Assembly: GCA_046292465.1 (NCBI GenBank)
Contig: JBKBRB010000002.1
Span: 22,063 to 86,062, forward strand
Direction of reading: 5' to 3'
Source: Chloroherpetonaceae bacterium
GTDB lineage: Bacteria > Bacteroidota > Chlorobiia > Chlorobiales > Thermochlorobacteraceae
Length of the DNA: 64,000 nt
The stretch's first letter is position 1, and each line of letters begins with the position of its first letter. The notes below the pieces were generated by a model, which ran no database searches, was not told where the DNA came from, and saw only the letters and a program-made list of their open reading frames with translations. This document shows positions 22,343-34,878 of this stretch, piece by piece. Position numbers and translations under genes: made by a program.

Positions 22343-22633
22343 TCAAGAAGTGTGATAGGAAAAAAGTCCGTGCTTTGTGGCTAAAAAGTGCAAGCCGCGT
22401 AATTCGTCGGGGATTGTATCGAGTGCGATGAAGTCGTTTTTTTCGGAGTTCCATTTGAGGGCTTGCACGAGTTCATCGCGCATTAAAGCGCGTAACGATT
22501 TATCCAGAATCTGCTCATTGATGTTTGTCTCTTGCAGAAGGTCATCAAACGAGAGCATAAAATGCAAGGCTTCAAGAATATCTTCTTCGTGTTTTGAGAG
22601 CGGGCGAATTTTGTTTTTTTCTTGCTCGGTCAT
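22343..22633 (-). CDS. Hypothetical protein (winged-helix-like)
   Basis: ATG 22633: MTEQEKNKIRPLSKHEEDILEALHFMLSFDDLL..HFLATKHGL. Overlaps the 3' end of the Rpn gene by 62 bp. Confidence 0.6.
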   Translation of the reverse strand: MTEQEKNKIRPLSKHEEDILEALHFMLSFDDLLQETNINEQILDKSLRALMRDELVQALKWNSEKNDFIALDTIPDELRGLHFLATKHGLFSYHTS

Positions 22634-23486
22634 TCGTTTCGGACGATTTGCTTGTGTGCAGTTGTTGAACTTTTCGCTTGGAAAGCCCTGTTGTTTTGGC
22701 GACGAGTTCAATGGGTAAATTTTCTTCCAACATTCTTTTTGCAATCTCTTCGGTCATTTGACGCTTTCCTTCATTCAAGCCTTGCTCTAAGCCTTCCTGC
22801 AAACCTTGGCGTAAGCCTTCCTGCAAGCCCTGCTCTAAGCCTTCCTTTCGCCCTTCTTTAATGGCTTCTTCGCGCGCTTGGCGATAGTAGCGCGTCTTCA
22901 TCAAATTCGTTTCCAGTTTGAGCATTTTTTCTATCTCCTCTCGAGTTAGGTTTGAAAACTTCGACGCGAGAATCTTTTCCAAAATCTCCCAAAATTTCGA
23001 GCCTGTTTCAGACAAAATGGCTTTAACTGTTTTAAGCGTTTCTTGTTCATCGGCAATCATCACTCTAAAAATTTCGAGCTGCGGAAAGAGTGGCTCTGTT
23101 TTCGGCAGTTGGTCTAAATAAATTCGCCTCACTCTGCCGCTCTCGATGAACTCTTCGTAGTTCTTGAACGACGGCTCAATTTTTTGATTTGGGAAAATAA
23201 CCACGCCACGCCAATCGTGAACTTCATACTGATGCAGATATAAAACTGTTTCTGCAAAAAAGCGTCGATAAAATTTCTCGTCGCGCTGAAACTGCACTTC
23301 AACGAAATACATCGGGCGCGCCTCGTCTTTCGGCTGAAAGGTAGCATCAATCCGAAACGCCGCTTGTTTTAGTTCAACGGACTTAAACACATAGCCACGC
23401 GCTTCGCTTTCAGGCAAACCGATTAAGGCAAAAAACGCTTCGGGCAAATCGTTGAAGATGTGATAGAAGAGATTATCGGTCTTCAC
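22572..23486 (-). CDS. Rpn family PD-(D/E)XK recombination-promoting nuclease (DUF2887-like)
   Basis: MKTDNLFY..FKSVELKQAAFRIDATF..YFVEVQFQRD; C-terminal EG/QG tetrapeptide repeats and an IAKRML..VAKTTGLS helix-turn-helix tail. Confidence 0.85.
   Translation of the reverse strand: MKTDNLFYHIFNDLPEAFFALIGLPESEARGYVFKSVELKQAAFRIDATFQPKDEARPMYFVEVQFQRDEKFYRRFFAETVLYLHQYEVHDWRGVVIFPNQKIEPSFKNYEEFIESGRVRRIYLDQLPKTEPLFPQLEIFRVMIADEQETLKTVKAILSETGSKFWEILEKILASKFSNLTREEIEKMLKLETNLMKTRYYRQAREEAIKEGRKEGLEQGLQEGLRQGLQEGLEQGLNEGKRQMTEEIAKRMLEENLPIELVAKTTGLSKRKVQQLHTSKSSETNDRARKKQNSPALKTRRRYS
22765..22862 (-). repeat. 12-nt tandem repeats encoding EGLEQG/EGLRQG in the Rpn C-terminus
   Basis: KEGRKEGLEQGLQEGLRQGLQEGLEQGLNEGK. 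Confidence 0.8.
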
Positions 23487-23489
23487 GCC

Positions 23490-25010
23490 TTATCGGTATG
23501 TTTTTCTACGCTCCCAGTTAGTTGTTGGATAGTTCAAAACAGGTTGAGGCGTAGATTGCGGCACATGGTTCGAGGTTGAAGCTTTCTTTTGCTTCTCGGA
23601 AAGCAACGCCGCCAGTACCGATGCTACTTCTTTAACTTCGGTCGATGGTTCTTTTTTGGTTCTATTGTTGTAGAAGTTTTGAACGAAGTGCGTATCGAAC
23701 TGTCCGCTTCGGAATGCTTCGTGCTCGAGCGTGAAAATGCAGAACGGAATTGTGGTTTCAACGCCGACAATTTCATACTCGCGCAACGCTCGCAACATTT
23801 TGTTGATGGCTTTTTCGCGGTCAGTGTCGTGCGTAACGAGTTTGGCAATCATCGGGTCGAAATACATCGAAATCTCGCCACCTTGTGAAACGCCTGAATC
23901 GACGCGTACGCCCAAGCCTTGCGGCTCGACATAGTGTTGCAGTTTTCCGATTGACGGTAAAAAGTTGTTCTCTGAATCTTCGGCATAAATGCGGCATTCA
24001 ATCGCATGTCCATTGATTTTAACGTCGCTCTGCGAAAACGATAACGGTTTGCCTTCCGCAATGTGGATTTGTTCGCGAACAAGGTCGAGCCCTGTGGTCA
24101 TTTCCGTAACGGGGTGCTCGACTTGCAATCGAGTATTGACCTCGAGGAAATAAAACTTCATGTGTTTATCGACCAAGAACTCACAAGTGCCTGCATTCGT
24201 GTAGCCGACTTCTTTGGCAAGACGAATGGCACACTCGCCCATTTCGCGACGCATTTCAGGTGTAACCACTGCCGACGGTGCTTCTTCAATCACTTTTTGA
24301 TTGCGACGCTGAATTGAGCATTCACGCTCGTTGAGCCACACGCCGTTGCCGTGTTCGTCCAAGAGCATTTGAATTTCAATGTGCCTTGGATTTTCGAGAT
24401 ACTTTTCAATGAACACTCGTCCATCGCCAAATGCAGAAATGGCTTCGGCTTGCGCAAGTTGAAACATTGATTCAAATTCTTCGGCGCGCTCGACTTTCTT
24501 CATGCCTTTTCCGCCGCCGCCTGCTGAGGCTTTCACGAGCACAGGATATCCAATTTTATCGGCAAACGCTTTGGCTTCTTTGACATCGTCAATTGAATCG
24601 GGGGTGCTGGGTGCAACCGGCACGCCGGCTTTTATGGCAAGTTTCTTCGCTTCAATTTTATCGCCCAATGCATGAATCACGTGCGACTTCGGTCCGATGA
24701 AAATAATGCCGTTCTCTTCGCAACGCTTGGCGAACTCTGCATTTTCAGACACGAAGCCATATCCGGGATGCACAGCGTCCGCACCGCTTTTTTTGATTAC
24801 TTCGATGAGCAACTCCTGACGCAGGTAGCTTTCGCGCGAAGTCGTTCCGCCTAAGCAGTAGGCTTCATCGGCAAGACGATGAAAGCGCGCATCTTTATCG
24901 GATTCAGAATAGACGGCAACCGATTGAATCCCCATTTCGCGCAACGTGCGAAAAACTCGAATCGCAATCTCGCCACGATTCGCTACTAAAACTTTCTTGA
25001 TGGTTTTCAT
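23490..25010 (-). CDS. accC: Biotin carboxylase subunit of acetyl/propionyl-CoA carboxylase
   Basis: KVLVANRGEIA, HPGYGFVSEN, GGGGKGM, RECSIQRRNQK, EVNTRLQVEHPVTE. No MKM biotinyl domain. Confidence 0.9.
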   Translation of the reverse strand: MKTIKKVLVANRGEIAIRVFRTLREMGIQSVAVYSESDKDARFHRLADEAYCLGGTTSRESYLRQELLIEVIKKSGADAVHPGYGFVSENAEFAKRCEENGIIFIGPKSHVIHALGDKIEAKKLAIKAGVPVAPSTPDSIDDVKEAKAFADKIGYPVLVKASAGGGGKGMKKVERAEEFESMFQLAQAEAISAFGDGRVFIEKYLENPRHIEIQMLLDEHGNGVWLNERECSIQRRNQKVIEEAPSAVVTPEMRREMGECAIRLAKEVGYTNAGTCEFLVDKHMKFYFLEVNTRLQVEHPVTEMTTGLDLVREQIHIAEGKPLSFSQSDVKINGHAIECRIYAEDSENNFLPSIGKLQHYVEPQGLGVRVDSGVSQGGEISMYFDPMIAKLVTHDTDREKAINKMLRALREYEIVGVETTIPFCIFTLEHEAFRSGQFDTHFVQNFYNNRTKKEPSTEVKEVASVLAALLSEKQKKASTSNHVPQSTPQPVLNYPTTNWERRKTYR

Positions 25011-26923: not shown

Positions 26924-29900
26924 ATGACGACAGAAACGCTTGCTTCGCCAACCTTGAACGGCACATCACTTCACGACGGCACTGCGCAAACCAATCCACT
27001 TCGCACCAAGCGCGACTTCGACGAAATGCGCAAAGCCTGCGAAAAAGATTTAGGCAAATTTCATGGCGATATTGCCAAACGCGAAATTCACTGGTTCGAC
27101 CCAAAACTCAACGCTTGGATTATTTACTCCGACACCGAAAAAAAATGGCTCGGCATTGATGCAAAAACCGGCAAGCCTGTCGACGTCAATTACCCCGAAT
27201 CGCACACGCCTTGGAAAATTGCTTTCGATGACTCACGCGCCCCGTTCTATCAATGGTTCAAAGGTGGCTTGACGAACGCCTGCTTCAACGAAATTGACCG
27301 ACACGTCGCTAACGGCTTCGGCGATGAAATTGCCTTCCACTTCGAAGGCGACCGCTGGGACGCCACCAAAAACAATGGCAAAGGCGGACCCGTCACGGCT
27401 TTCAGCATCACACGCAAAGCCCTCATGCTGGAAGTTGCAAAATGCGCCCTTGCACTTCAATCGCTCGGCTTGAAAAAAGGCGACCGCGTTTGCCTCAATA
27501 TGCCCAACATCATGGAGCAGATTTATTACACCGAAGCCTGCAAACGCCTTGGCATTATTTACACCGCAGTCTTTGGCGGCTTTTCCGATAAAACGCTCTC
27601 CGACCGAATCCACAACGCCGGCGCAAGCGTGGTCATTACCAGCGACGGCTCTTACCGCAATGCGCAAGTCGTCGCATTCAAAGAAGAATACACCGATAAA
27701 GCCCTCGATAACTACATTCCGCTTGATGTTGCACTCAATATCACAACAGCAAAACTCAAAGCGTTGAAAGTCGCGCCGAAAGTTGCCAGCGCGATTGTTG
27801 AAAAAATTCAGTCCAATCTCAAAGACGAAATCACCACTGAACGCGCTGATGTGATGCGCGCGGTCGGACAAGCCCTCTCGCACTTGCGCGGACTTTCGAT
27901 TCAAGAGAAATCCAAAATTCGCGTCGAACTTGCCAAAGCCCTCGTCGATTCACCGCCGCGTGTCAAAGCCGTTATCGTCGTCAAACACACTGGACAAGAC
28001 ATCAACTGGCGAAAAGAACGCGATAAGTGGTCGCATGAACTCTTGGCGCAAGCCACAAAAACCTTGATTGCTAACGCCAAAAAAGCCGGCATTTCCGTCT
28101 CCTCTGAAAAAGAGTTGCTTGCGCTCGATACTGAAAAATTCATCAAAGCCATTTATGCCTCTGTGCCGTGCGAACCTGTTGATGCCGAGTATCCGCTCTT
28201 CTTCATTTACACATCAGGCTCAACGGGCAAGCCCAAAGGTGTGGTGCATGTTCACGGCGGCTATGCGTCAGGCGTGGCTTACACGATGAAAGTTTCCTTT
28301 GATGCGCGTCCGGGCAAAGACACCATGTATGTGATTGCCGACCCGGGCTGGATTACAGGACAGTCTTACATGATTGCCGCTTCACTCTTAGCGCGCGTAA
28401 CCGGCGTTGTCTGCGAAGGCTCACCGCTCTTTCCAAGCGCAGGTCGATATGCCTCAACCATTGAGCGTTATGGCGTTACGATTTTCAAAGCCGGCGTTAC
28501 CTTTCTCAAATCTGTGATGACCAACCCGCTCAATGTTGCCGAAGTCAAGCAATACTCGATGAACACGCTTCGTGTGGCAACCTTCTGCGCTGAGCCGTGC
28601 AGTCCCGCTGTTCAAGAGTTTGGGATGAACATCATGACGCGCCAATACATCAACTCGTATTGGGCAACCGAACATGGCGGCATTGTGTGGACGCACTTCT
28701 ACGGCAATCCTGATTTTCCGCTCAACCCTGACACGCACACTTACCCACTTCCTTGGGTTTTCGGCGACGTGTGGGTTTCGCAAGGCACCGATAAGCAAGG
28801 TCGACAAATCTACCGCTCCGCCGACTATGAAGAGAAAGGCGAAATCGTTATCACGAAACCCTACCCTTACCTTGCGCGCACTATCTGGGGCGATGCTGAC
28901 AACTTCCTCAAAAAATTCGAGCAAGGCAAATGGATGGGCGATTTTGAGCGATATAAAAAAACCTATTGGGATAGATGGAGCGATGGTAAAAAACAAGTCT
29001 GGGCTTACACACAAGGCGACTTTGCAATGAAGTATCCCGATGGCTCCTTCACCTTGCACGGACGCAGCGACGATGTGATTAACGTCTCTGGGCACCGCAT
29101 GGGCACGGAAGAAATCGAGGGCGCAATTTTGAAAGATAAATCGCTCAATCCTGATTCGCCTGTGGGCAATGTGATTGTGGTTGGCGCGCCGCATCGTGAA
29201 AAAGGTCTCACGCCTGTGGCATTTCTCTTGCCTGCACCCGGACGGCACATCACGCAAGACGATATGCGTCGGCTTTCGGAACTTGTGCGCAAAGAAAAAG
29301 GCGCAGTGAGCGTGCCAAGCGATTACATCGTGGTCTCGGCTTTTCCCGAAACGCGAAGTGGCAAGTATATGCGCCGTTTTCTCAAAAATATGATTAACGA
29401 TGAACCGCTCGGCGACACGACCACGCTTCGCAATCCTGAATCGCTTGTCGAAATCCGCAAAAAAATCGAGGAGTGGAAGCAAAAGCAAGCGACGGAAGAA
29501 TCGCAAGTGATGTTTGAAAATTTCCGTTACTTCCGCATTCAGTATGCGCCCGTCAAAGAAGGCGAAATGCTTGCGGTGGTAACGATTTCCAATCCGCCCG
29601 TCAATGCGCTCAATGAACGATGCTTGGATGAACTGAACACGGTGGTCGACCGGCTCTCGCGCAACGATGCGGTCAAAGCCGTGATTTTCACCGGCGCAGG
29701 CACAAAGTCGTTTGTGGCAGGCGCGGACATTAAGCAGTTCTACGAAGAAATTCAAACCGAAGAAGATGCGCTCACGCTTCCGAACAATGCGCACCTTGCT
29801 TTCCGCAAAATTGAGCAGATGAACAAACCTGTCATTGCGGCAATTAACGGCGTTGCGCTTGGCGGCGGCAATGAATTTGCGCTGGCGTGCCATTATCGCA

Positions 29901-30010
29901 TTGCCGATGCAACGGCAACCTTCGGTCAACCTGAAATCAACCTGCGTCTTATTCCGGGCTATGGTGGCACACAACGCTTGCCGAGAATTTTGGGAGAGAA
30001 AAAATTGTAA
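26924..30010 (+). CDS. pcs: Propionyl-CoA synthase N-terminal part: acyl-CoA synthetase domain plus most of the enoyl-CoA hydratase domain
   Basis: YTSGSTGKPKG, YWATEHGG, GRSDDVINVSGHR, ETRSGKYMRR, then crotonase PPVNAL, FVAGADI, GGGNE, QPEINL, GYGGTQRLPRIL followed by a stop. Confidence 0.85.
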   Translation: MTTETLASPTLNGTSLHDGTAQTNPLRTKRDFDEMRKACEKDLGKFHGDIAKREIHWFDPKLNAWIIYSDTEKKWLGIDAKTGKPVDVNYPESHTPWKIAFDDSRAPFYQWFKGGLTNACFNEIDRHVANGFGDEIAFHFEGDRWDATKNNGKGGPVTAFSITRKALMLEVAKCALALQSLGLKKGDRVCLNMPNIMEQIYYTEACKRLGIIYTAVFGGFSDKTLSDRIHNAGASVVITSDGSYRNAQVVAFKEEYTDKALDNYIPLDVALNITTAKLKALKVAPKVASAIVEKIQSNLKDEITTERADVMRAVGQALSHLRGLSIQEKSKIRVELAKALVDSPPRVKAVIVVKHTGQDINWRKERDKWSHELLAQATKTLIANAKKAGISVSSEKELLALDTEKFIKAIYASVPCEPVDAEYPLFFIYTSGSTGKPKGVVHVHGGYASGVAYTMKVSFDARPGKDTMYVIADPGWITGQSYMIAASLLARVTGVVCEGSPLFPSAGRYASTIERYGVTIFKAGVTFLKSVMTNPLNVAEVKQYSMNTLRVATFCAEPCSPAVQEFGMNIMTRQYINSYWATEHGGIVWTHFYGNPDFPLNPDTHTYPLPWVFGDVWVSQGTDKQGRQIYRSADYEEKGEIVITKPYPYLARTIWGDADNFLKKFEQGKWMGDFERYKKTYWDRWSDGKKQVWAYTQGDFAMKYPDGSFTLHGRSDDVINVSGHRMGTEEIEGAILKDKSLNPDSPVGNVIVVGAPHREKGLTPVAFLLPAPGRHITQDDMRRLSELVRKEKGAVSVPSDYIVVSAFPETRSGKYMRRFLKNMINDEPLGDTTTLRNPESLVEIRKKIEEWKQKQATEESQVMFENFRYFRIQYAPVKEGEMLAVVTISNPPVNALNERCLDELNTVVDRLSRNDAVKAVIFTGAGTKSFVAGADIKQFYEEIQTEEDALTLPNNAHLAFRKIEQMNKPVIAAINGVALGGGNEFALACHYRIADATATFGQPEINLRLIPGYGGTQRLPRILGEKKL
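29967..29993 (+). repeat. 27-bp direct repeat, copy 1 (3' end of the pcs N-part)
   Basis: gcacacaacgcttgccgagaattttgg, identical to 31628-31654. Confidence 0.95.
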
Positions 30011-31590
30011 TGGGCTCGCTAACTAAAACTTACGATAATCAAAAGTTATTAGGGCAGGTTTACACGCCGCGTTTTGTGGTAGAAAAAATCCTGACCGATA
30101 TTGGTTTTGATAATCGAAGTGTATTAGAAAAAACTATTTTAGACCCTGCTTGTGGCGACGGACGCTTTCTGACCGTAGTAGCCGAAAAAATTATAGAACT
30201 TTCACCAAAAGAAAAGTTACAGGAAAATTTAGAAAAAATTCATGGTTGGGATATTGATGAAAAAGCCATTGCCTACTGCGTTGATAATCTGAATGAATTG
30301 ATAAAGCCGTTTGATATACAAGTAAATTGGAATCTTCAAATTTGCAATTCACTAAAAAAAATTACTGAGTTTGATTCGCCAAAATTTGATTTTATTGTTG
30401 GCAATCCTCCTTACATTCGCATACAGCATTTGGAAGAAGCCGAGCGAAAATTTATTCAGAAATTCTATAAATTTTGCAAGAGTGGCTCTACCGATACTTA
30501 CATTGCGTTTTATGAATTATGTAATTTCTTGCTCAAAGAAGATGGCAAGTGCGGATTAATTACACCAAATACATTTTTTTACAGTGAAACGGCAAAATTT
30601 ATGCGTGCCTATTTTTCCAGAAAGCAAACGCTCATCAAAATTGTTAATTATGCTGACATTCAACTGTTTGGTAATGCTACGACATATAGTGCTATTACAA
30701 TTTTTGGAAAAGCATTCAATAAGACTTTCACTTATGAACAAGCGAAAACGCCAACGACTTTTGAACAGCGCATCATCAATTTCAGCGAAATTAAGAACAG
30801 GAAAATTTGGCAGTTAAGTGTTAATCCGAACCCAGAGCAAGAAGGCGTAAAACTGAAAGAGATTTGCCACATTCACGTCGGCATTACAACCCTTTGCGAT
30901 AAGGCTTATATTTTTCCAATTCAAGAGATAGAAAATGAACCTGATTATGTCTTCGCCAGAACATACTTCAAAGGCTTAGTAAAATTAGAAAAGTCTATTT
31001 TGAAACCGATTATCAAAGCCTCAAAACTCAAAAGTAGTGCCGATAAAATTAAAGAATATATTTTGTTTCCTTACCAAAAAATAAATGGTAGACATAAAAT
31101 TATTCCTGAAGATGTGCTAAAAGCCAAGTTTCCATTAGCCTACCAATACCTTTTGAGTGTAAAAAGCGAATTGGATAAACGAGATAACGGTAAACCGAAT
31201 CCCGTTGCGTGGTATGCTTTCGGCAGAAGTCAGGGATTGGATACAAGTTTTGGTAAGAAAATTTTGTTTTCGCCGATGAACAATAAGCCTAATTTTATTT
31301 TGTCAGAAAACGAAGAAAGCACCTTTTATTCAGGCTACTGCATTAAATATGATGGCGACTATGAGTTTTTATTAGAGCAATTAAATTCACAGCGATTAGC
31401 CGATTTTATTGCGGTTTCAAGCCGTGATTTTCGTGGTGGTTGGAAAGCATACAATAAAAAAGCCTTAGAAGAATTTACGATAATCATACCGCACGATAAA
31501 CTCGTGAAAACCCAAAAAGTAAACTTGCACTATGCGAAATGGGCTGAAAGCGAGACAAATGTGCTCACTTTGGACTTTGATGCTTGCTAA
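30010..31590 (+). CDS. Orphan N6-adenine DNA methyltransferase (gamma class, Eco57I/TaqI-like) with TRD
   Basis: GQVYTP (motif X), LDPACGDGRF (motif I), VGNPPY (motif IV), WYAFGRSQ. ATG overlaps the pcs stop (TAATG). Visibly more AT-rich than the flanks. Confidence 0.88.
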   Translation: MGSLTKTYDNQKLLGQVYTPRFVVEKILTDIGFDNRSVLEKTILDPACGDGRFLTVVAEKIIELSPKEKLQENLEKIHGWDIDEKAIAYCVDNLNELIKPFDIQVNWNLQICNSLKKITEFDSPKFDFIVGNPPYIRIQHLEEAERKFIQKFYKFCKSGSTDTYIAFYELCNFLLKEDGKCGLITPNTFFYSETAKFMRAYFSRKQTLIKIVNYADIQLFGNATTYSAITIFGKAFNKTFTYEQAKTPTTFEQRIINFSEIKNRKIWQLSVNPNPEQEGVKLKEICHIHVGITTLCDKAYIFPIQEIENEPDYVFARTYFKGLVKLEKSILKPIIKASKLKSSADKIKEYILFPYQKINGRHKIIPEDVLKAKFPLAYQYLLSVKSELDKRDNGKPNPVAWYAFGRSQGLDTSFGKKILFSPMNNKPNFILSENEESTFYSGYCIKYDGDYEFLLEQLNSQRLADFIAVSSRDFRGGWKAYNKKALEEFTIIIPHDKLVKTQKVNLHYAKWAESETNVLTLDFDAC

Positions 31591-31627
31591 ACACAACTGT
31601 AGAATTTGACAACAACTCGCTACAGTA

Positions 31628-31654
31628 GCACACAACGCTTGCCGAGAATTTTGG
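31628..31654 (+). repeat. 27-bp direct repeat, copy 2
   Basis: Identical to 29967-29993; in the pcs frame it reads YSSTQRLPRILEQNAKQ*. Confidence 0.95.
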
Positions 31655-31747
31655 AGCAAAACGCAAAACAGTAGCCAACAGGAAAATCATTTTTTTACAG
31701 TCGTTTGTTTGATAATGCTATGACTCATCACAGTTAAACTACAAACT

Positions 31748-31963
31748 ATGAAAACCTTAAAAGTTCAGAAAAAAGGCTTATTGATTCCGAAACGGTTGCT
31801 TAAAAATGCTAACAAGGTTCATGTTTTGGAGGAAAATGGGAAAATTATCATCATGCCAATTTTGCACGATGACCCGATATTCAATCTCGGAAAACACCCA
31901 ATCCATTTAGGGATTCAAGACGCTTCTGTAAACTTGGACAATTATTTGTATGAAGGCAAATAA
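31748..31963 (+). CDS. Putative antitoxin (AbrB-like) of a PIN TA pair
   Basis: 71 aa, GLLIPKRLL..ENGKIIIMP..DASVNLDNYLY; overlaps the PIN gene start. Confidence 0.7.
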   Translation: MKTLKVQKKGLLIPKRLLKNANKVHVLEENGKIIIMPILHDDPIFNLGKHPIHLGIQDASVNLDNYLYEGK

Positions 31964-32375
31964 TCACTACTTTATTGATACAAGTTACATCATCGCATTA
32001 GAGATTTCAGACGACCAACACCACTTGCAAGCCCTGTCGCATTGGAATCGTCTCATTTCAAAACCGATTTATTTATCAACTACCTCATATGTGTTTGATG
32101 AAGTCGTAACTTTCTTCAATACACGCAAGTATCATTCAAAAGCATTAGAAGTCGGTAGATATTTATTAGATAGTCCTTCTGTGAATGTAGTTTTCGTTAG
32201 TGAAGCTCTCTTCTACGAAGGCTGGCAATACTTTCAAAAGCATGCGGATAAAACTTTTTCGTTAACAGATTGTCTTTCTTTTCTTGTGATGAAGAAGTTT
32301 CAAATCAATACAGCCTTGACTTTTGACAAGCATTTTTCCCAAGCCGGATTTACAGTTCAACCAACAAAACGTTAA
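31950..32375 (+). CDS. vapC: PIN-domain (VapC-like) toxin
   Basis: FIDTSYIIAL, TTSYVFDEV, SLTDCLSF, TFDKHF carry the conserved acidic residues. Confidence 0.85.
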   Translation: MKANNHYFIDTSYIIALEISDDQHHLQALSHWNRLISKPIYLSTTSYVFDEVVTFFNTRKYHSKALEVGRYLLDSPSVNVVFVSEALFYEGWQYFQKHADKTFSLTDCLSFLVMKKFQINTALTFDKHFSQAGFTVQPTKR

Positions 32376-32502
32376 GTTTTTCACTTGTATACACCGTTAC
32401 GGTCTTAACTTACGGATTTGAGTTCTACAAGTGCTCTCTCAAGTTAGACACAAAGTTTAGCCAATACAGATTCAAGTTCTTAACCTTTTCAATACTACGA
32501 CC

Positions 32503-34878
32503 ATGACACAACAGGAAGCCTTCAAAATTGCCCTTCAACTTCTTCTTTCAGGTCGCTCGATTGATGCCAATACTGCCAAAGAAATCGGACTTGTTGACGA
32601 ACTCGCCGACAGCGACGCTGTTATTCGCGCCACAGAACTTGCACGCGAATTTATTGCAGGCACAAACGGTCAATCGTTGAAATCAGCCTTTGAAGCACGT
32701 CGCGCCGCCACTCAATCGTGGGAGTTGCCCACTCAATTTCCTGAATCGCTCTTGCAAGACCCCGATATTCAAACGTTGATTGGCTCGCTCAAACACTCCG
32801 GGCGAGAAAAAGCCGTTGAGAAAATTTTGCACGCTTTGCGCGTTGGCTTTGAACAAGGCTTTTCAAAAGGGATTGAAACTGAAGCCAAACTTTTTGCTCA
32901 AGCCGTTGTAGCACGCGATGAAGGCAAAGCCGGCATCGAAGCGTTTTTGAATAAGCAAGCCAAGCCACTTCCACCACGTCCGCTGCGCATTAAAATCACT
33001 CCTGAACAAGAACAAGAACTCCTTGCAAAGGGCGATTTGCTTCCTGTTGATGCACCGTTCTTTCCAGGCATAACGAAAATTCCGAAGTATCAATACGCAC
33101 TTGCGGTCGTGCGCGATGAAAAAACCGGCGCGATTCCACACGGCGACCCGATTAAAGCCGAACAAAAAGTCATTACCACCGTTCCCGAACCTTCGCCGAA
33201 TGAAGTGCTACTTTATATGCTCACCAGCGAAATTAACTTCAACGACATTTGGGGCATTCAAGGCATTCCCGTCTCGCAAATGGAGGCGAACGACCAAGAT
33301 GTTTATATCACAGGAAGCGGCGGACTTGCGCTCATTGTTGCCGTCGGCTCGGAAGTCTTGCGCGAAGGACGCTTGAAAGTGGGCGACTTGGTTACGGTTT
33401 ATTCAGGGCAATCGGATTTGCTTTCACCACAAGCCGCCTTAGACCCCATGTTCTGCGACTTCAGAATTCAAGGCTACGAAACCGGCGATGGCTCGCATCA
33501 ACAATTTATGGTCTCGCAAGCCCCGCAATGCCACAAAAAGCCACAAGACCTCACACTTGAAGCGGCAGGCAGTTATGTGCTCAACGTTGGCACGGTTTTT
33601 CGCGCACTTTTCACGACACTTCAAATCGAGAGCAACAAATCCATTTTCATTGAAGGCGCGGCAACTGGCACTGGCAACGAAGCCTTGAAAATCGCCGTCA
33701 AATCAGGCTTGAATGTGATTGGGCTTGTCTCAAGCGATGAGCGCGGCAAAAGTATCGAGGCACAAGGCGCAAAGTATATCAACCGTAAAGACAAATCGCT
33801 TGAGAAGATTTTCACCAAGATTCCTGAAAAGCCAAGCGACATCAAAAAGTGGGCGAAAGATGGTGAAGTTTTCCTAAAAAAAATCAAATCGCACAACGGC
33901 GGCAAACTTGTCGATTATGCAGTCTCGCATGCAGGCGAGCAATCCTTTCCGCGCACGTTTCAAGCCTTAGCGCAAGGCGGCACGCTCACCTTCTACGGCG
34001 CATCGAGCGGCTATCACTTTACTTTTCTCGGCAAGAAAGGCACATCCACACCTGACGCCATGCTCTCCAAAATTCGCTTCCGCGCTAATGACTCTGCGCT
34101 GTGTTATTACGGCACAAGCGTCGATAAGTCGGGCATTGTTGACGAAGTCGGATTGGAAATCATTGAGACTTTGCGTGAGCGTAAGGCTCGCATTGTGGTT
34201 GCGTGTTACACCGATGCACAAAAGGAATTTATCGAGTCGCTCGGTTTTGGCGATTCCATCAAAAGTGTGATTTCACTTGAAGCAATGAAACGGCGTTACC
34301 AAGATGATTTTGAGTGGCAAGCACCAATGAAATCTCTACCTGACGCCCGCAAGGAAACAGCGAAGTTCAAACAAGCGGTGCAGGAGTTTAACGACAAAAC
34401 GCTCAAACCCTTTGGTGGTGAAGTTGGCAAAGCCTTGCGTTCGCCTGATAATCCGCGCGGCAATCCTGATGTGGTTTTTGAGCGTGCAGGTCATGATGCA
34501 CTTGCCGTGTCGACAGCGGTCGTTAAGCCTTTCACAGGCAAAGTGATTTATTCAGAGGAAATGAACGGCAAGCGATATAGTTTTTATGCGCCACAAGTGT
34601 GGATGCGTCAGCGCCGAATTTACATGCCTTCCGCCAACATCTTCGGCACGCACCTTTGCAACGCTTATGAAGTTTCCGTCATGAACGATATGGTTGACGC
34701 TGGCCTGATTGAAATCTCGGAACCTTATGTCGTTAGTTTCGATGAAATTCCGCAAGCGCATCAAGATATGTGGGAAAATAAGCACAAAGCAGGCAATTAT
34801 GTCGGCAATCATTGCTTACCGCAAACAGGCTTGAAGACAAAGGAAGAACTTTTCAATGCGTGGAGTTTGAAGAAGTAG
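32503..34878 (+). CDS. pcs: Propionyl-CoA synthase C-terminal part: end of the crotonase domain plus acrylyl-CoA reductase (MDR/Ccr-like) domain
   Basis: Starts ALQLLLSGRSIDANTAKEIGLVD (the crotonase continuation); SEINFNDIW, IQGYET, nucleotide-binding IEGAATGTG, YAPQVWMRQRRI. Confidence 0.85.
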   Translation: MTQQEAFKIALQLLLSGRSIDANTAKEIGLVDELADSDAVIRATELAREFIAGTNGQSLKSAFEARRAATQSWELPTQFPESLLQDPDIQTLIGSLKHSGREKAVEKILHALRVGFEQGFSKGIETEAKLFAQAVVARDEGKAGIEAFLNKQAKPLPPRPLRIKITPEQEQELLAKGDLLPVDAPFFPGITKIPKYQYALAVVRDEKTGAIPHGDPIKAEQKVITTVPEPSPNEVLLYMLTSEINFNDIWGIQGIPVSQMEANDQDVYITGSGGLALIVAVGSEVLREGRLKVGDLVTVYSGQSDLLSPQAALDPMFCDFRIQGYETGDGSHQQFMVSQAPQCHKKPQDLTLEAAGSYVLNVGTVFRALFTTLQIESNKSIFIEGAATGTGNEALKIAVKSGLNVIGLVSSDERGKSIEAQGAKYINRKDKSLEKIFTKIPEKPSDIKKWAKDGEVFLKKIKSHNGGKLVDYAVSHAGEQSFPRTFQALAQGGTLTFYGASSGYHFTFLGKKGTSTPDAMLSKIRFRANDSALCYYGTSVDKSGIVDEVGLEIIETLRERKARIVVACYTDAQKEFIESLGFGDSIKSVISLEAMKRRYQDDFEWQAPMKSLPDARKETAKFKQAVQEFNDKTLKPFGGEVGKALRSPDNPRGNPDVVFERAGHDALAVSTAVVKPFTGKVIYSEEMNGKRYSFYAPQVWMRQRRIYMPSANIFGTHLCNAYEVSVMNDMVDAGLIEISEPYVVSFDEIPQAHQDMWENKHKAGNYVGNHCLPQTGLKTKEELFNAWSLKK

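Follow-up and report, generated by a model that had tools for sequence, protein, structure and literature searches.

A probable two-chain propionyl-CoA synthase, cut within the crotonase domain, in Candidatus Thermochlorobacter-like Chlorobiales

What becomes of a multidomain enzyme when the coding sequence is divided inside one of its domains? The question is raised by a stretch of 64,000 nucleotides from a Chloroherpetonaceae bacterium (GenBank contig JBKBRB010000002.1, positions 22,063 to 86,062 of the forward strand), referred to here as the window. Two of its open reading frames (ORFs), ORF1 (pcsN) and ORF2 (pcsC), together correspond to propionyl-CoA synthase (Pcs), which in its fused form carries out a three-step reaction in an enclosed chamber (PMC10176485). 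The source genome is a metagenome-assembled genome (MAG) of 2.7 Mb in 56 contigs, 98% complete, with a single pcs locus. Comparison with relatives and a predicted complex make it probable that the pair is an old, conserved two-gene Pcs of Candidatus Thermochlorobacter-like Chlorobiales, the three-site architecture of which would be rebuilt from two chains; its assembly and activity are what we infer from these data.

Identity of the two chains and position of the cut

The best match of both ORFs among solved structures is the fused propionyl-CoA synthase PDB 6EQO (1850 aa). Residues 29-1025 of ORF1 align to residues 25-1048 of this protein (E = 0) and residues 7-788 of ORF2 to residues 1055-1840 (E = 1e-271), and only about six loop residues remain unaccounted for in this colinear arrangement. 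Ligase, crotonase-type dehydratase and MDR-type enoyl reductase follow each other in order and colinear with the characterised Pcs, and the identity assigned by the original prediction, which was made from the DNA letters and their ORFs, is borne out from end to end of both proteins. A single polypeptide of about 1800-1850 aa is not present. The open frames of fused relatives measure 1786-1873 aa, and the window encodes 1028 + 791 aa, separated by 2492 nt. ORF1 terminates with GYGGTQRLPRILGEKKL and the stop codon, ORF2 begins with MTQQEAFKIALQLLLSGRSIDA, and neither has an internal stop; coordinates, ends and starts agree with those predicted. The ATG at 32503 is the first start codon after the in-frame stop and is kept in relatives.

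The cut lies inside the crotonase fold, because the end of ORF1 and the start of ORF2 match complementary parts of the domain profiles. Pfam recognizes ACAS_N, AMP-binding, AMP-binding_C and ECH_1 on ORF1, the last over profile positions 4-148 of 251, and MDR-type reductase domains on ORF2. Positions from about 150 to 258 of the NCBIfam enoyl-CoA hydratase profiles match ORF2 residues 4-153 and supply the missing half of the fold. No single chain carries a complete PF00378 crotonase fold, and ORF1 and ORF2 together cover it. The break was thus correctly predicted within the domain rather than at its boundary.

The motif residues of all three sites, which had been claimed to be present, are invariant in the alignments. 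Both conserved glutamates are on ORF1, E984 (GGGNE) and E1004 (GQPE), and are unchanged in 19 of 19 sequences of alignment A1, as is the adenylation P-loop TSGSTGKPKG (T430-G439). The GAATGTG-type dinucleotide-binding residues G385, A386, T388, G389 and G391 of ORF2 are invariant in the 20 sequences of alignment A2. In line with the crotonase literature, E984 and E1004 would be catalytic, and we take the other motif residues to be so as well.

The junction coincides with a loop that varies in length and sequence among fused homologues, located between ...GGTQRLPR(I/L)L and the helix ...L(E/Q)I(I/M)L(S/G)GR. Its variants in fused proteins include ERKWKRGEAIKK, AAKGALTVFEAVKK and a far longer insert in one Chloroflexia record. 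In split forms ORF1 stops 4-12 residues beyond RIL and ORF2 begins 4-7 residues ahead of the helix.

The fused enzymes of Erythrobacter sp. NAP1 (PDB 6EQO) and Chloroflexus aurantiacus possess the same three domains, order and motif residues as the split pair, whereas the window has two polypeptides, with the chain broken within the crotonase fold and unrelated genes spanning 2.5 kb between the coding sequences. By analogy, the split pair would catalyse the same three-step reaction in an enclosed chamber. Fused Pcs and stand-alone enzymes are both described (PMC10176485). In the archaeal 3-hydroxypropionate/4-hydroxybutyrate cycle the same three reactions are spread over more than one polypeptide, and the archaeal dehydratase 5ZAI is a weak match to the crotonase part of ORF1. 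However, 3-hydroxypropionyl-CoA synthetase, dehydratase and acryloyl-CoA reductase of this archaeal set are each built from whole domains, and here one domain is shared by two chains. Another kind of divided Pcs relative is represented by P0131 and P0335 (969 aa, crotonase and reductase without ligase). Their N-terminus coincides with that of the crotonase domain, which puts the division at the ligase/dehydratase boundary, unlike the in-fold cut in the window. Such 969-aa forms were all that a protein search with ORF2 returned over 50%-identity clusters, which mask the difference between split and fused forms.

Distribution and age of the split

Genomes of the order, contigs of other genomes and metagenomes were surveyed for the junction. 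Eleven of 41 genomes in the order-level census had an ORF1 match at E <= 1e-100; five of them are split (G000, the source genome, and G001, G005, G011 and G013), four are fused (G006, G012, G015 and G017), and two are cut by contig ends and uninformative (G004 and G007). The genome-contig search yielded 24 loci. With the 594-nt piece L048 left out, 4 of 23 are split and the other 19 run through the junction without interruption. Nineteen loci were found in metagenomes, and after two 71-residue end pieces were left out, 6 of 17 are split and 8 are fused; the other 3 lack the junction and are uninformative. All informative Thermochlorobacter-type contigs are split at the same loop, namely five genomes, the genome contig L026 and six metagenome contigs (L049-L054). 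The concern that relatives might all be fused is thereby removed. The split contigs are all of the Thermochlorobacter type, with an ORF2 at least 89% identical to that of the window, except G013, a member of another family, with 68%.

Outside this group, the junction is in one frame in Chloroherpetonaceae-type Chlorobiales, Chloroflexia, Polyangia, Bdellovibrionota, Alpha- and Gammaproteobacteria and Parachlamydiales, as well as in one Acidobacteriota MAG and in haloarchaeal megaplasmids. The haloarchaeal fused gene (Natribaculum luteum plasmid L072, 87560-98601, and four others) is 5.4 kb long, annotated as AMP-binding protein, and adjoins genes for a methylmalonyl-CoA mutase family protein and for the beta subunit of an acyl-CoA carboxylase. 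Two matches appeared in unexpected genomes. A contig end of G007, from another genus, encodes 220 residues 100% identical to the start of ORF1 (G007:C5:73142-73801, L018), and this contig may have been binned into the wrong genome. L048, titled Gloeomargarita sp. (a cyanobacterial MAG), has a coding sequence for ORF2 residues 315-512 (91% identity) and is likely a stray Thermochlorobacter fragment in a cyanobacterial bin.

Both halves have been under strong purifying selection since the fission, unlike the decaying halves of a knock-out. The ratio of nonsynonymous to synonymous substitution rates (dN/dS) is 0.060-0.067 for ORF1 at dS 0.74-0.93 (G000, G001 and G005) and 0.063-0.068 for ORF2 at dS 0.74-0.92 (G000, G001 and YM). 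Either half compared with G013 gives 0.11-0.19 at dS 1.4-2.4. The crotonase piece on ORF1 has a dN/dS of 0.05-0.06 against G001, G005 and L053. The dN/dS check proposed by the original prediction therefore returned about 0.06 for each half, far from neutral, and together with the shared loop it sustains the view of a natural, old split instead of a fresh knock-out.

Misassembly had been named as another way in which the prediction could fail. That an assembly or binning artefact joins unrelated pieces is close to impossible in our judgement, even though the source is a metagenome-assembled genome of 56 contigs and no single Logan contig spans the whole stretch. Contigs from another sample of the same study (X2) reproduce the locus with 30-nt overlaps, covering 26924-29993 with 15 differing letters, 29964-31657 with none and 31628-34877 with none, and independent assemblies of other samples show the same split. 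The X2 and X3 contigs break exactly at the copies of a direct repeat described below, and no insert-free contig was listed. In X2 the contig with the gap methyltransferase has a depth of 29.6 and its flanking contigs 62.8 and 58.7, while in X3 the values are 9.6/8.3 and 13.4/10.9; contig depth is no copy number, and these values give a hint that part of the population is without the methyltransferase.

A split form without the window's cargo, with a short gap or a very short spacer, also exists. RNA libraries X16 and X17 of another study contain contigs of a relative over 28236-29991 and 32529-34878, with about 118 differences in 1756 letters (about 93% identity). In each library a single contig links 29991 to 32529, which is codon 9 of ORF2, with 127 letters between. 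Neither library covers 30116-32509, as expected for a relative without the window cargo, and they are silent on cargo expression here.

A similar division was found outside the Chlorobiales. A length-restricted search retrieved ORF1-type proteins of 1040-1045 aa ending a few residues after GGTQRLPRLL from Chloracidobacterium sp. CP2_5A and C. validum, and the matching ORF2-type proteins have about 818 aa. Four of 401 Acidobacteriota genomes contained a match, one with a fused 1860-aa frame and three split with frames of 1051-1076 aa, and the protein of one split genome shows 100% identity with the C. validum entry. Each of the three split Chloracidobacterium genomes has an intact ORF2-type gene on the contig that bears the ORF1-type gene, at distances of 112, 422 and 582 kb. 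The Chloracidobacterium pair (P0032 for ORF1, P0289 for ORF2) resembles the window in being cut in the same loop, between GGTQRLPRLL and ...LDAIEI(I/L)VGGR, in purifying selection on its halves (dN/dS 0.03-0.07) and in the company of an Mcr-like gene. It differs in its separate clade, in unlinked genes and in a longer Ala/Ser-rich N-terminal extension of ORF2. The same loop must have been cut at least twice, because the Chloracidobacterium sequences form their own clade outside the Chlorobiales in both half-trees (support of 100 in the SH-like approximate likelihood-ratio test, SH-aLRT), with Chlorobiales grouping with Chloroflexia in the N-half tree (98). Further ORF1-type proteins, P0038 and P0117, stand beside a fused form in an alphaproteobacterial clade; these are possibly split, or else products of sequencing errors.

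Contents and history of the gap

The features of the locus and the gap contents of split relatives are collected in Table 1. Upstream of the pcs locus and on the opposite strand are a gene for a DUF2887 protein (22572-23486) and a biotin carboxylase gene (23490-25010).

Table 1. Features of the split pcs locus in window coordinates, and genes found between the two halves in relatives.
Feature or locus	Position	Strand	Content or remark
pcsN (ORF1, 1028 aa)	26924..30010	+	3-hydroxypropionyl-CoA (acyl-CoA) ligase domain and N-terminal two-thirds of crotonase (dehydratase) core
Crotonase N-half in ORF1 (residues 866-1023)	29519..29992	+	Pfam ECH_1 match at 881-1027
Direct repeat copy 1	29958..29993	+	36 nt, 92% identity to copy 2; ORF1 3' end coding GYGGTQRLPRIL
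New ORF1 tail (G)EKKL and stop	29994..30010	+	From inserted DNA; TAA stop overlaps methyltransferase ATG (TAATG)
Solitary type II N6-adenine DNA methyltransferase, Eco57I-like, 526 aa	30010..31590	+	NPPY motif; PF07669, PF02384; PADLOC MTase_II E = 2.6e-143
Direct repeat copy 2 (31619-31654) and remnant of older ORF1 tail (31655-31674)	31619..31674	+	Reads (Y)SSTQRLPRILEQNAKQ and stop
Candidate vapB-like antitoxin, 71 aa	31748..31963	+	Overlaps PIN gene start by 14 nt
vapC, PIN-domain toxin, 141 aa	31950..32375	+	Pfam PF01850, E = 3.7e-12
pcsC (ORF2, 791 aa)	32503..34878	+	C-terminal crotonase helices (residues ~1-165) and acrylyl-CoA reductase (MDR/Ccr-like)
Crotonase C-half in ORF2 (residues 1-165)	32503..32997	+	NCBIfam enoyl-CoA hydratase profiles
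Window gap			Eco57I-like methyltransferase (unrelated to those of other loci) and VapBC
G001, G013 gap		opposite	Only a 179-190-aa cytochrome P460-like lipoprotein gene (PF16694)
L026 gap			P460-like gene and VapBC
L050 gap			P460-like gene and VapB-like ORF
L053 gap (and start of G005)			93-aa ORF, 69-aa ORF and P460-like gene
L028/L054, L049, L052 gap			BsaWI-like endonuclease and N4/N6 methyltransferase
L051 gap			BsaWI-like endonuclease, N4/N6 methyltransferase and VapBC

The methyltransferase of the window is bracketed by the two copies of a 36-nt repeat, a feature absent from the original prediction. After copy 2 the reading continues as ...TQRLPRILEQNAKQ and a stop, and this remnant can be aligned with the tails of ORF1 in G005 and L053. 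The present tail EKKL, in contrast, is unlike those of G001, G005 and L053. ORF1 must have ended here before the methyltransferase arrived, because the duplicated remnant is an older ORF1 tail with its own stop. The methyltransferase is thus the last and lineage-specific insertion, which duplicated the 36 nt and supplied the last residues of PcsN, and the split predates the cargo now in the window. None of the other split loci has this gene in its gap, and no DNA match to it turned up in the plasmid collection.

These data also bear on the idea of a recent knock-out, in which a methyltransferase/VapBC cassette would have entered an intact pcs gene and left two decaying pseudogene halves. The insert does have the look of a newcomer, with its selfish gene content, the direct repeat flanking the methyltransferase and a low G+C content (0.33-0.37 across the gap and about 0.35 in the methyltransferase, against about 0.50 in the flanks). 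However, the split is common to five genomes, L026 and L049-L054 with differing cargo, the low dN/dS holds at dS 0.74-0.93, and the remnant tail places the end of ORF1 before the insertion. A recent knock-out is very unlikely on these grounds.

As predicted, the gap is a landing site for selfish or defence genes, and relatives carry differing cargo sets there. In the window, a PIN toxin gene comes after a small overlapping gene, the arrangement of VapBC modules. The 71-aa ORF has no Pfam or PADLOC match and would be the antitoxin by its position; ORFs homologous to it precede the PIN genes in L026, L050 and L051, and the VapBC region of the window shares 83% DNA identity with that of L026. No ORF for a cognate endonuclease was found in the window gap, so that a type II restriction-modification system is not complete and the methyltransferase is solitary. 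Common to the distant G013 and the genus of the window, the P460-like gene is the strongest candidate for what the gap first held, and the ancestral gap gene was probably of this type and on the opposite strand. A search with the P460-like query P0006 gave no match in five genomes (G000, G006, G011, G012 and G015), a set that included no genome with a known match.

Cargo start codons overlap the ORF1 stop in several loci, as TAATG in the window and as ATGA in G005 and L053, which suggests that cargo genes may ride on pcsN expression. No terminator was found in a scan of 29800-32700. A conserved 93-aa ORF (L053 3880-4377; L010 3078-3359) also begins with such an ATGA overlap and is followed in L053 by the 69-aa ORF. 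Neither has a family match above threshold, and the two may form an unrecognised two-gene addiction or defence module.

The locus recalls defence islands, where one fixed site between conserved genes receives varying restriction-modification and toxin-antitoxin cargo, but the hot spot here separates two parts of a gene that is whole elsewhere. Neither an integrase nor a tRNA nor a long repeat was found to mark the gap.

Assembly of one enzyme from two chains and its significance

The following explanation is put forward. The comparisons show that fission took place in the length-variable crotonase loop, before the Thermochlorobacter-type genomes diverged. PcsN comprises the ligase and the beta-alpha crotonase core with both conserved glutamates, and PcsC the other helices of the crotonase together with the NADPH-dependent enoyl reductase. 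The two chains would associate non-covalently by completing one crotonase fold, and the rebuilt enzyme would convert 3-hydroxypropionate via 3-hydroxypropionyl-CoA and acrylyl-CoA to propionyl-CoA. The gap created by the fission exchanges cargo freely, as the sets found in relatives show, and the Eco57I-like methyltransferase arrived last in the window.

A complex prediction was made for ORF1 855-1028 with ORF2 1-165. It reached an ipSAE of 0.91, compared with 0.00 for the best of three controls; among solved complexes 58 of 80 reach this mark, and among mismatched pairs 2 of 110, counts that apply approximately here, as the two pieces were given alignments of our own. At least 95% of contacts are shared between runs, the partner pLDDT is at least 88, and predicted contacts are with ORF1 875-1027. 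The check suggested by the original prediction was thus passed as far as the controls go, and its bearing on binding is qualified below.

The chains might no longer assemble, in which case PcsN would be a stand-alone ligase, PcsC a stand-alone reductase, the crotonase pieces vestigial, and another hydratase would serve. Other crotonase genes are indeed available in the genome (G000:C14, a 279-aa frame; G000:C5, a 264-aa frame), the halves are unlinked in Chloracidobacterium, the crotonase part of PcsC evolves faster than its reductase, and archaea possess a stand-alone enzyme for each of the three steps (PMC10176485). We consider this improbable nonetheless. Both crotonase pieces are full length in every split lineage, the N part combines its low dN/dS with two invariant glutamates, and half of a beta-alpha core, if left exposed, would presumably be unstable or disappear. 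The predicted complex clears its controls, and the faster C part is seen in fused forms too.

Post-transcriptional or post-translational joining of the halves, through an intron, ribosomal bypass or split intein, would draw on their exact colinearity and on nothing else, and we give it next to no credence. No Rfam family, group I and II introns included, was found in 29800-32700 at E <= 1. The gap content varies among relatives and includes antisense genes, tails of 4-12 aa and heads of 4-25 aa are too short for intein halves, and the Chloracidobacterium genes are 112-582 kb apart. Intron, bypass and intein were rejected with no Rfam match and with tails and heads of a few residues.

Several observations weigh against the proposed two-chain enzyme. 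The crotonase piece on ORF2 has a dN/dS of 0.13-0.19, versus 0.044-0.050 for the rest of ORF2, but in four fused pairs, too, no other part is less conserved than this segment. The pass of the complex prediction indicates that the pieces look like one crotonase fold, which may reflect likeness to solved structures (6EQO and crotonases) and not binding. The RNA-library contigs are no proof of transcription, nor of one shared transcript. The halves form no obvious operon in G001 and G013, where the gene in the gap runs antisense. A promoter scan of 29800-32700 gave 8 sites versus 7.7 +/- 3.2 expected, with none above chance before ORF2, using a consensus that may not fit Chlorobiales. Frameshifts occur in the halves of L028 and L054 (Ca. 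Thermochlorobacter aerophilum OS) and L052, near residue 809 of ORF1 and near 217-282 of ORF2. Sequencing errors in these older assemblies are a more probable cause than decay; L049, with a gap 99.3-99.5% identical, has an intact ORF2. Finally, the fused G006 is placed beside the split clade of the window (g1), with SH-aLRT of 95 and 85 (C-half tree).

Since the fused G006 sits among split forms, either re-fusion or repeated fission is needed, and the history within Chlorobiales was either one of repeated fission or of one fission with later re-fusion. In the C-half tree a fused Chloroherpetonaceae-type clade is within the split grade (SH-aLRT 83). A single clade of split forms was not rejected by approximately unbiased (AU) tests (p 0.31 and 0.42). 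The trees are quick searches with SH-aLRT support only.

The source genome has an intact Mcr-like gene (G000:C3:158947-162558, L068) with a 1237-aa frame, 51% identical to a 1219-aa gene that adjoins pcs in a Chloroflexia record. Mcr-like genes are also present in G001, G006, G013 and the three Chloracidobacterium genomes, and none was found in G012. Three methylmalonyl-CoA mutase matches and two strong carboxyltransferase matches were found in the source genome (G000:C16, C7, C9 and C5). No convincing malyl-CoA lyase was detected there, with HpcH/HpaI matches weak and partial. This gene content suggests a partial 3-hydroxypropionate route, that is, bicarbonate co-assimilation from acetyl-CoA to succinyl-CoA in aerobic photoheterotrophs, and not a full bi-cycle or autotrophy.

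No mention of a split Pcs, or of Pcs in Thermochlorobacter and Chloracidobacterium, was found in the searchable literature, though supplementary tables (e.g. Table S6 of PMC5459899) might list the genes. Pipelines annotate the halves as 'AMP-binding protein', 'acetate--CoA ligase' and 'zinc-binding dehydrogenase'. Because of these generic annotations, marker-gene surveys of the 3-hydroxypropionate bi-cycle may mis-score the organisms.

As far as sequence comparison can tell, the locus encodes a real and conserved two-chain variant of a known enzyme, cut in the crotonase domain, which would assemble and act as Pcs. Pcs serves as a model for substrate sequestration and as a component of synthetic CO2-fixation pathways (PMC10176485). 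If the two-chain reading is true, a reaction chamber can be built from separately made pieces, and the loop is a tolerated split site for engineering. The idea is open to direct testing, as a cultured Chloracidobacterium carries a split version. More broadly, we lean slightly towards the view that Pcs, the textbook example of a toxic intermediate enclosed by a fused enzyme, is a heteromer in at least two photoheterotroph lineages, with one domain built from two chains. A permissive loop would have been cut repeatedly, in the Thermochlorobacter type, in Chloracidobacterium and possibly in the alphaproteobacterial P0038 and P0117, and maybe re-fused. Fusion would then be unneeded for the chamber, and the gap, within what was an essential pathway gene, would be a neutral docking site for defence and addiction genes, some of them start-stop coupled to PcsN.

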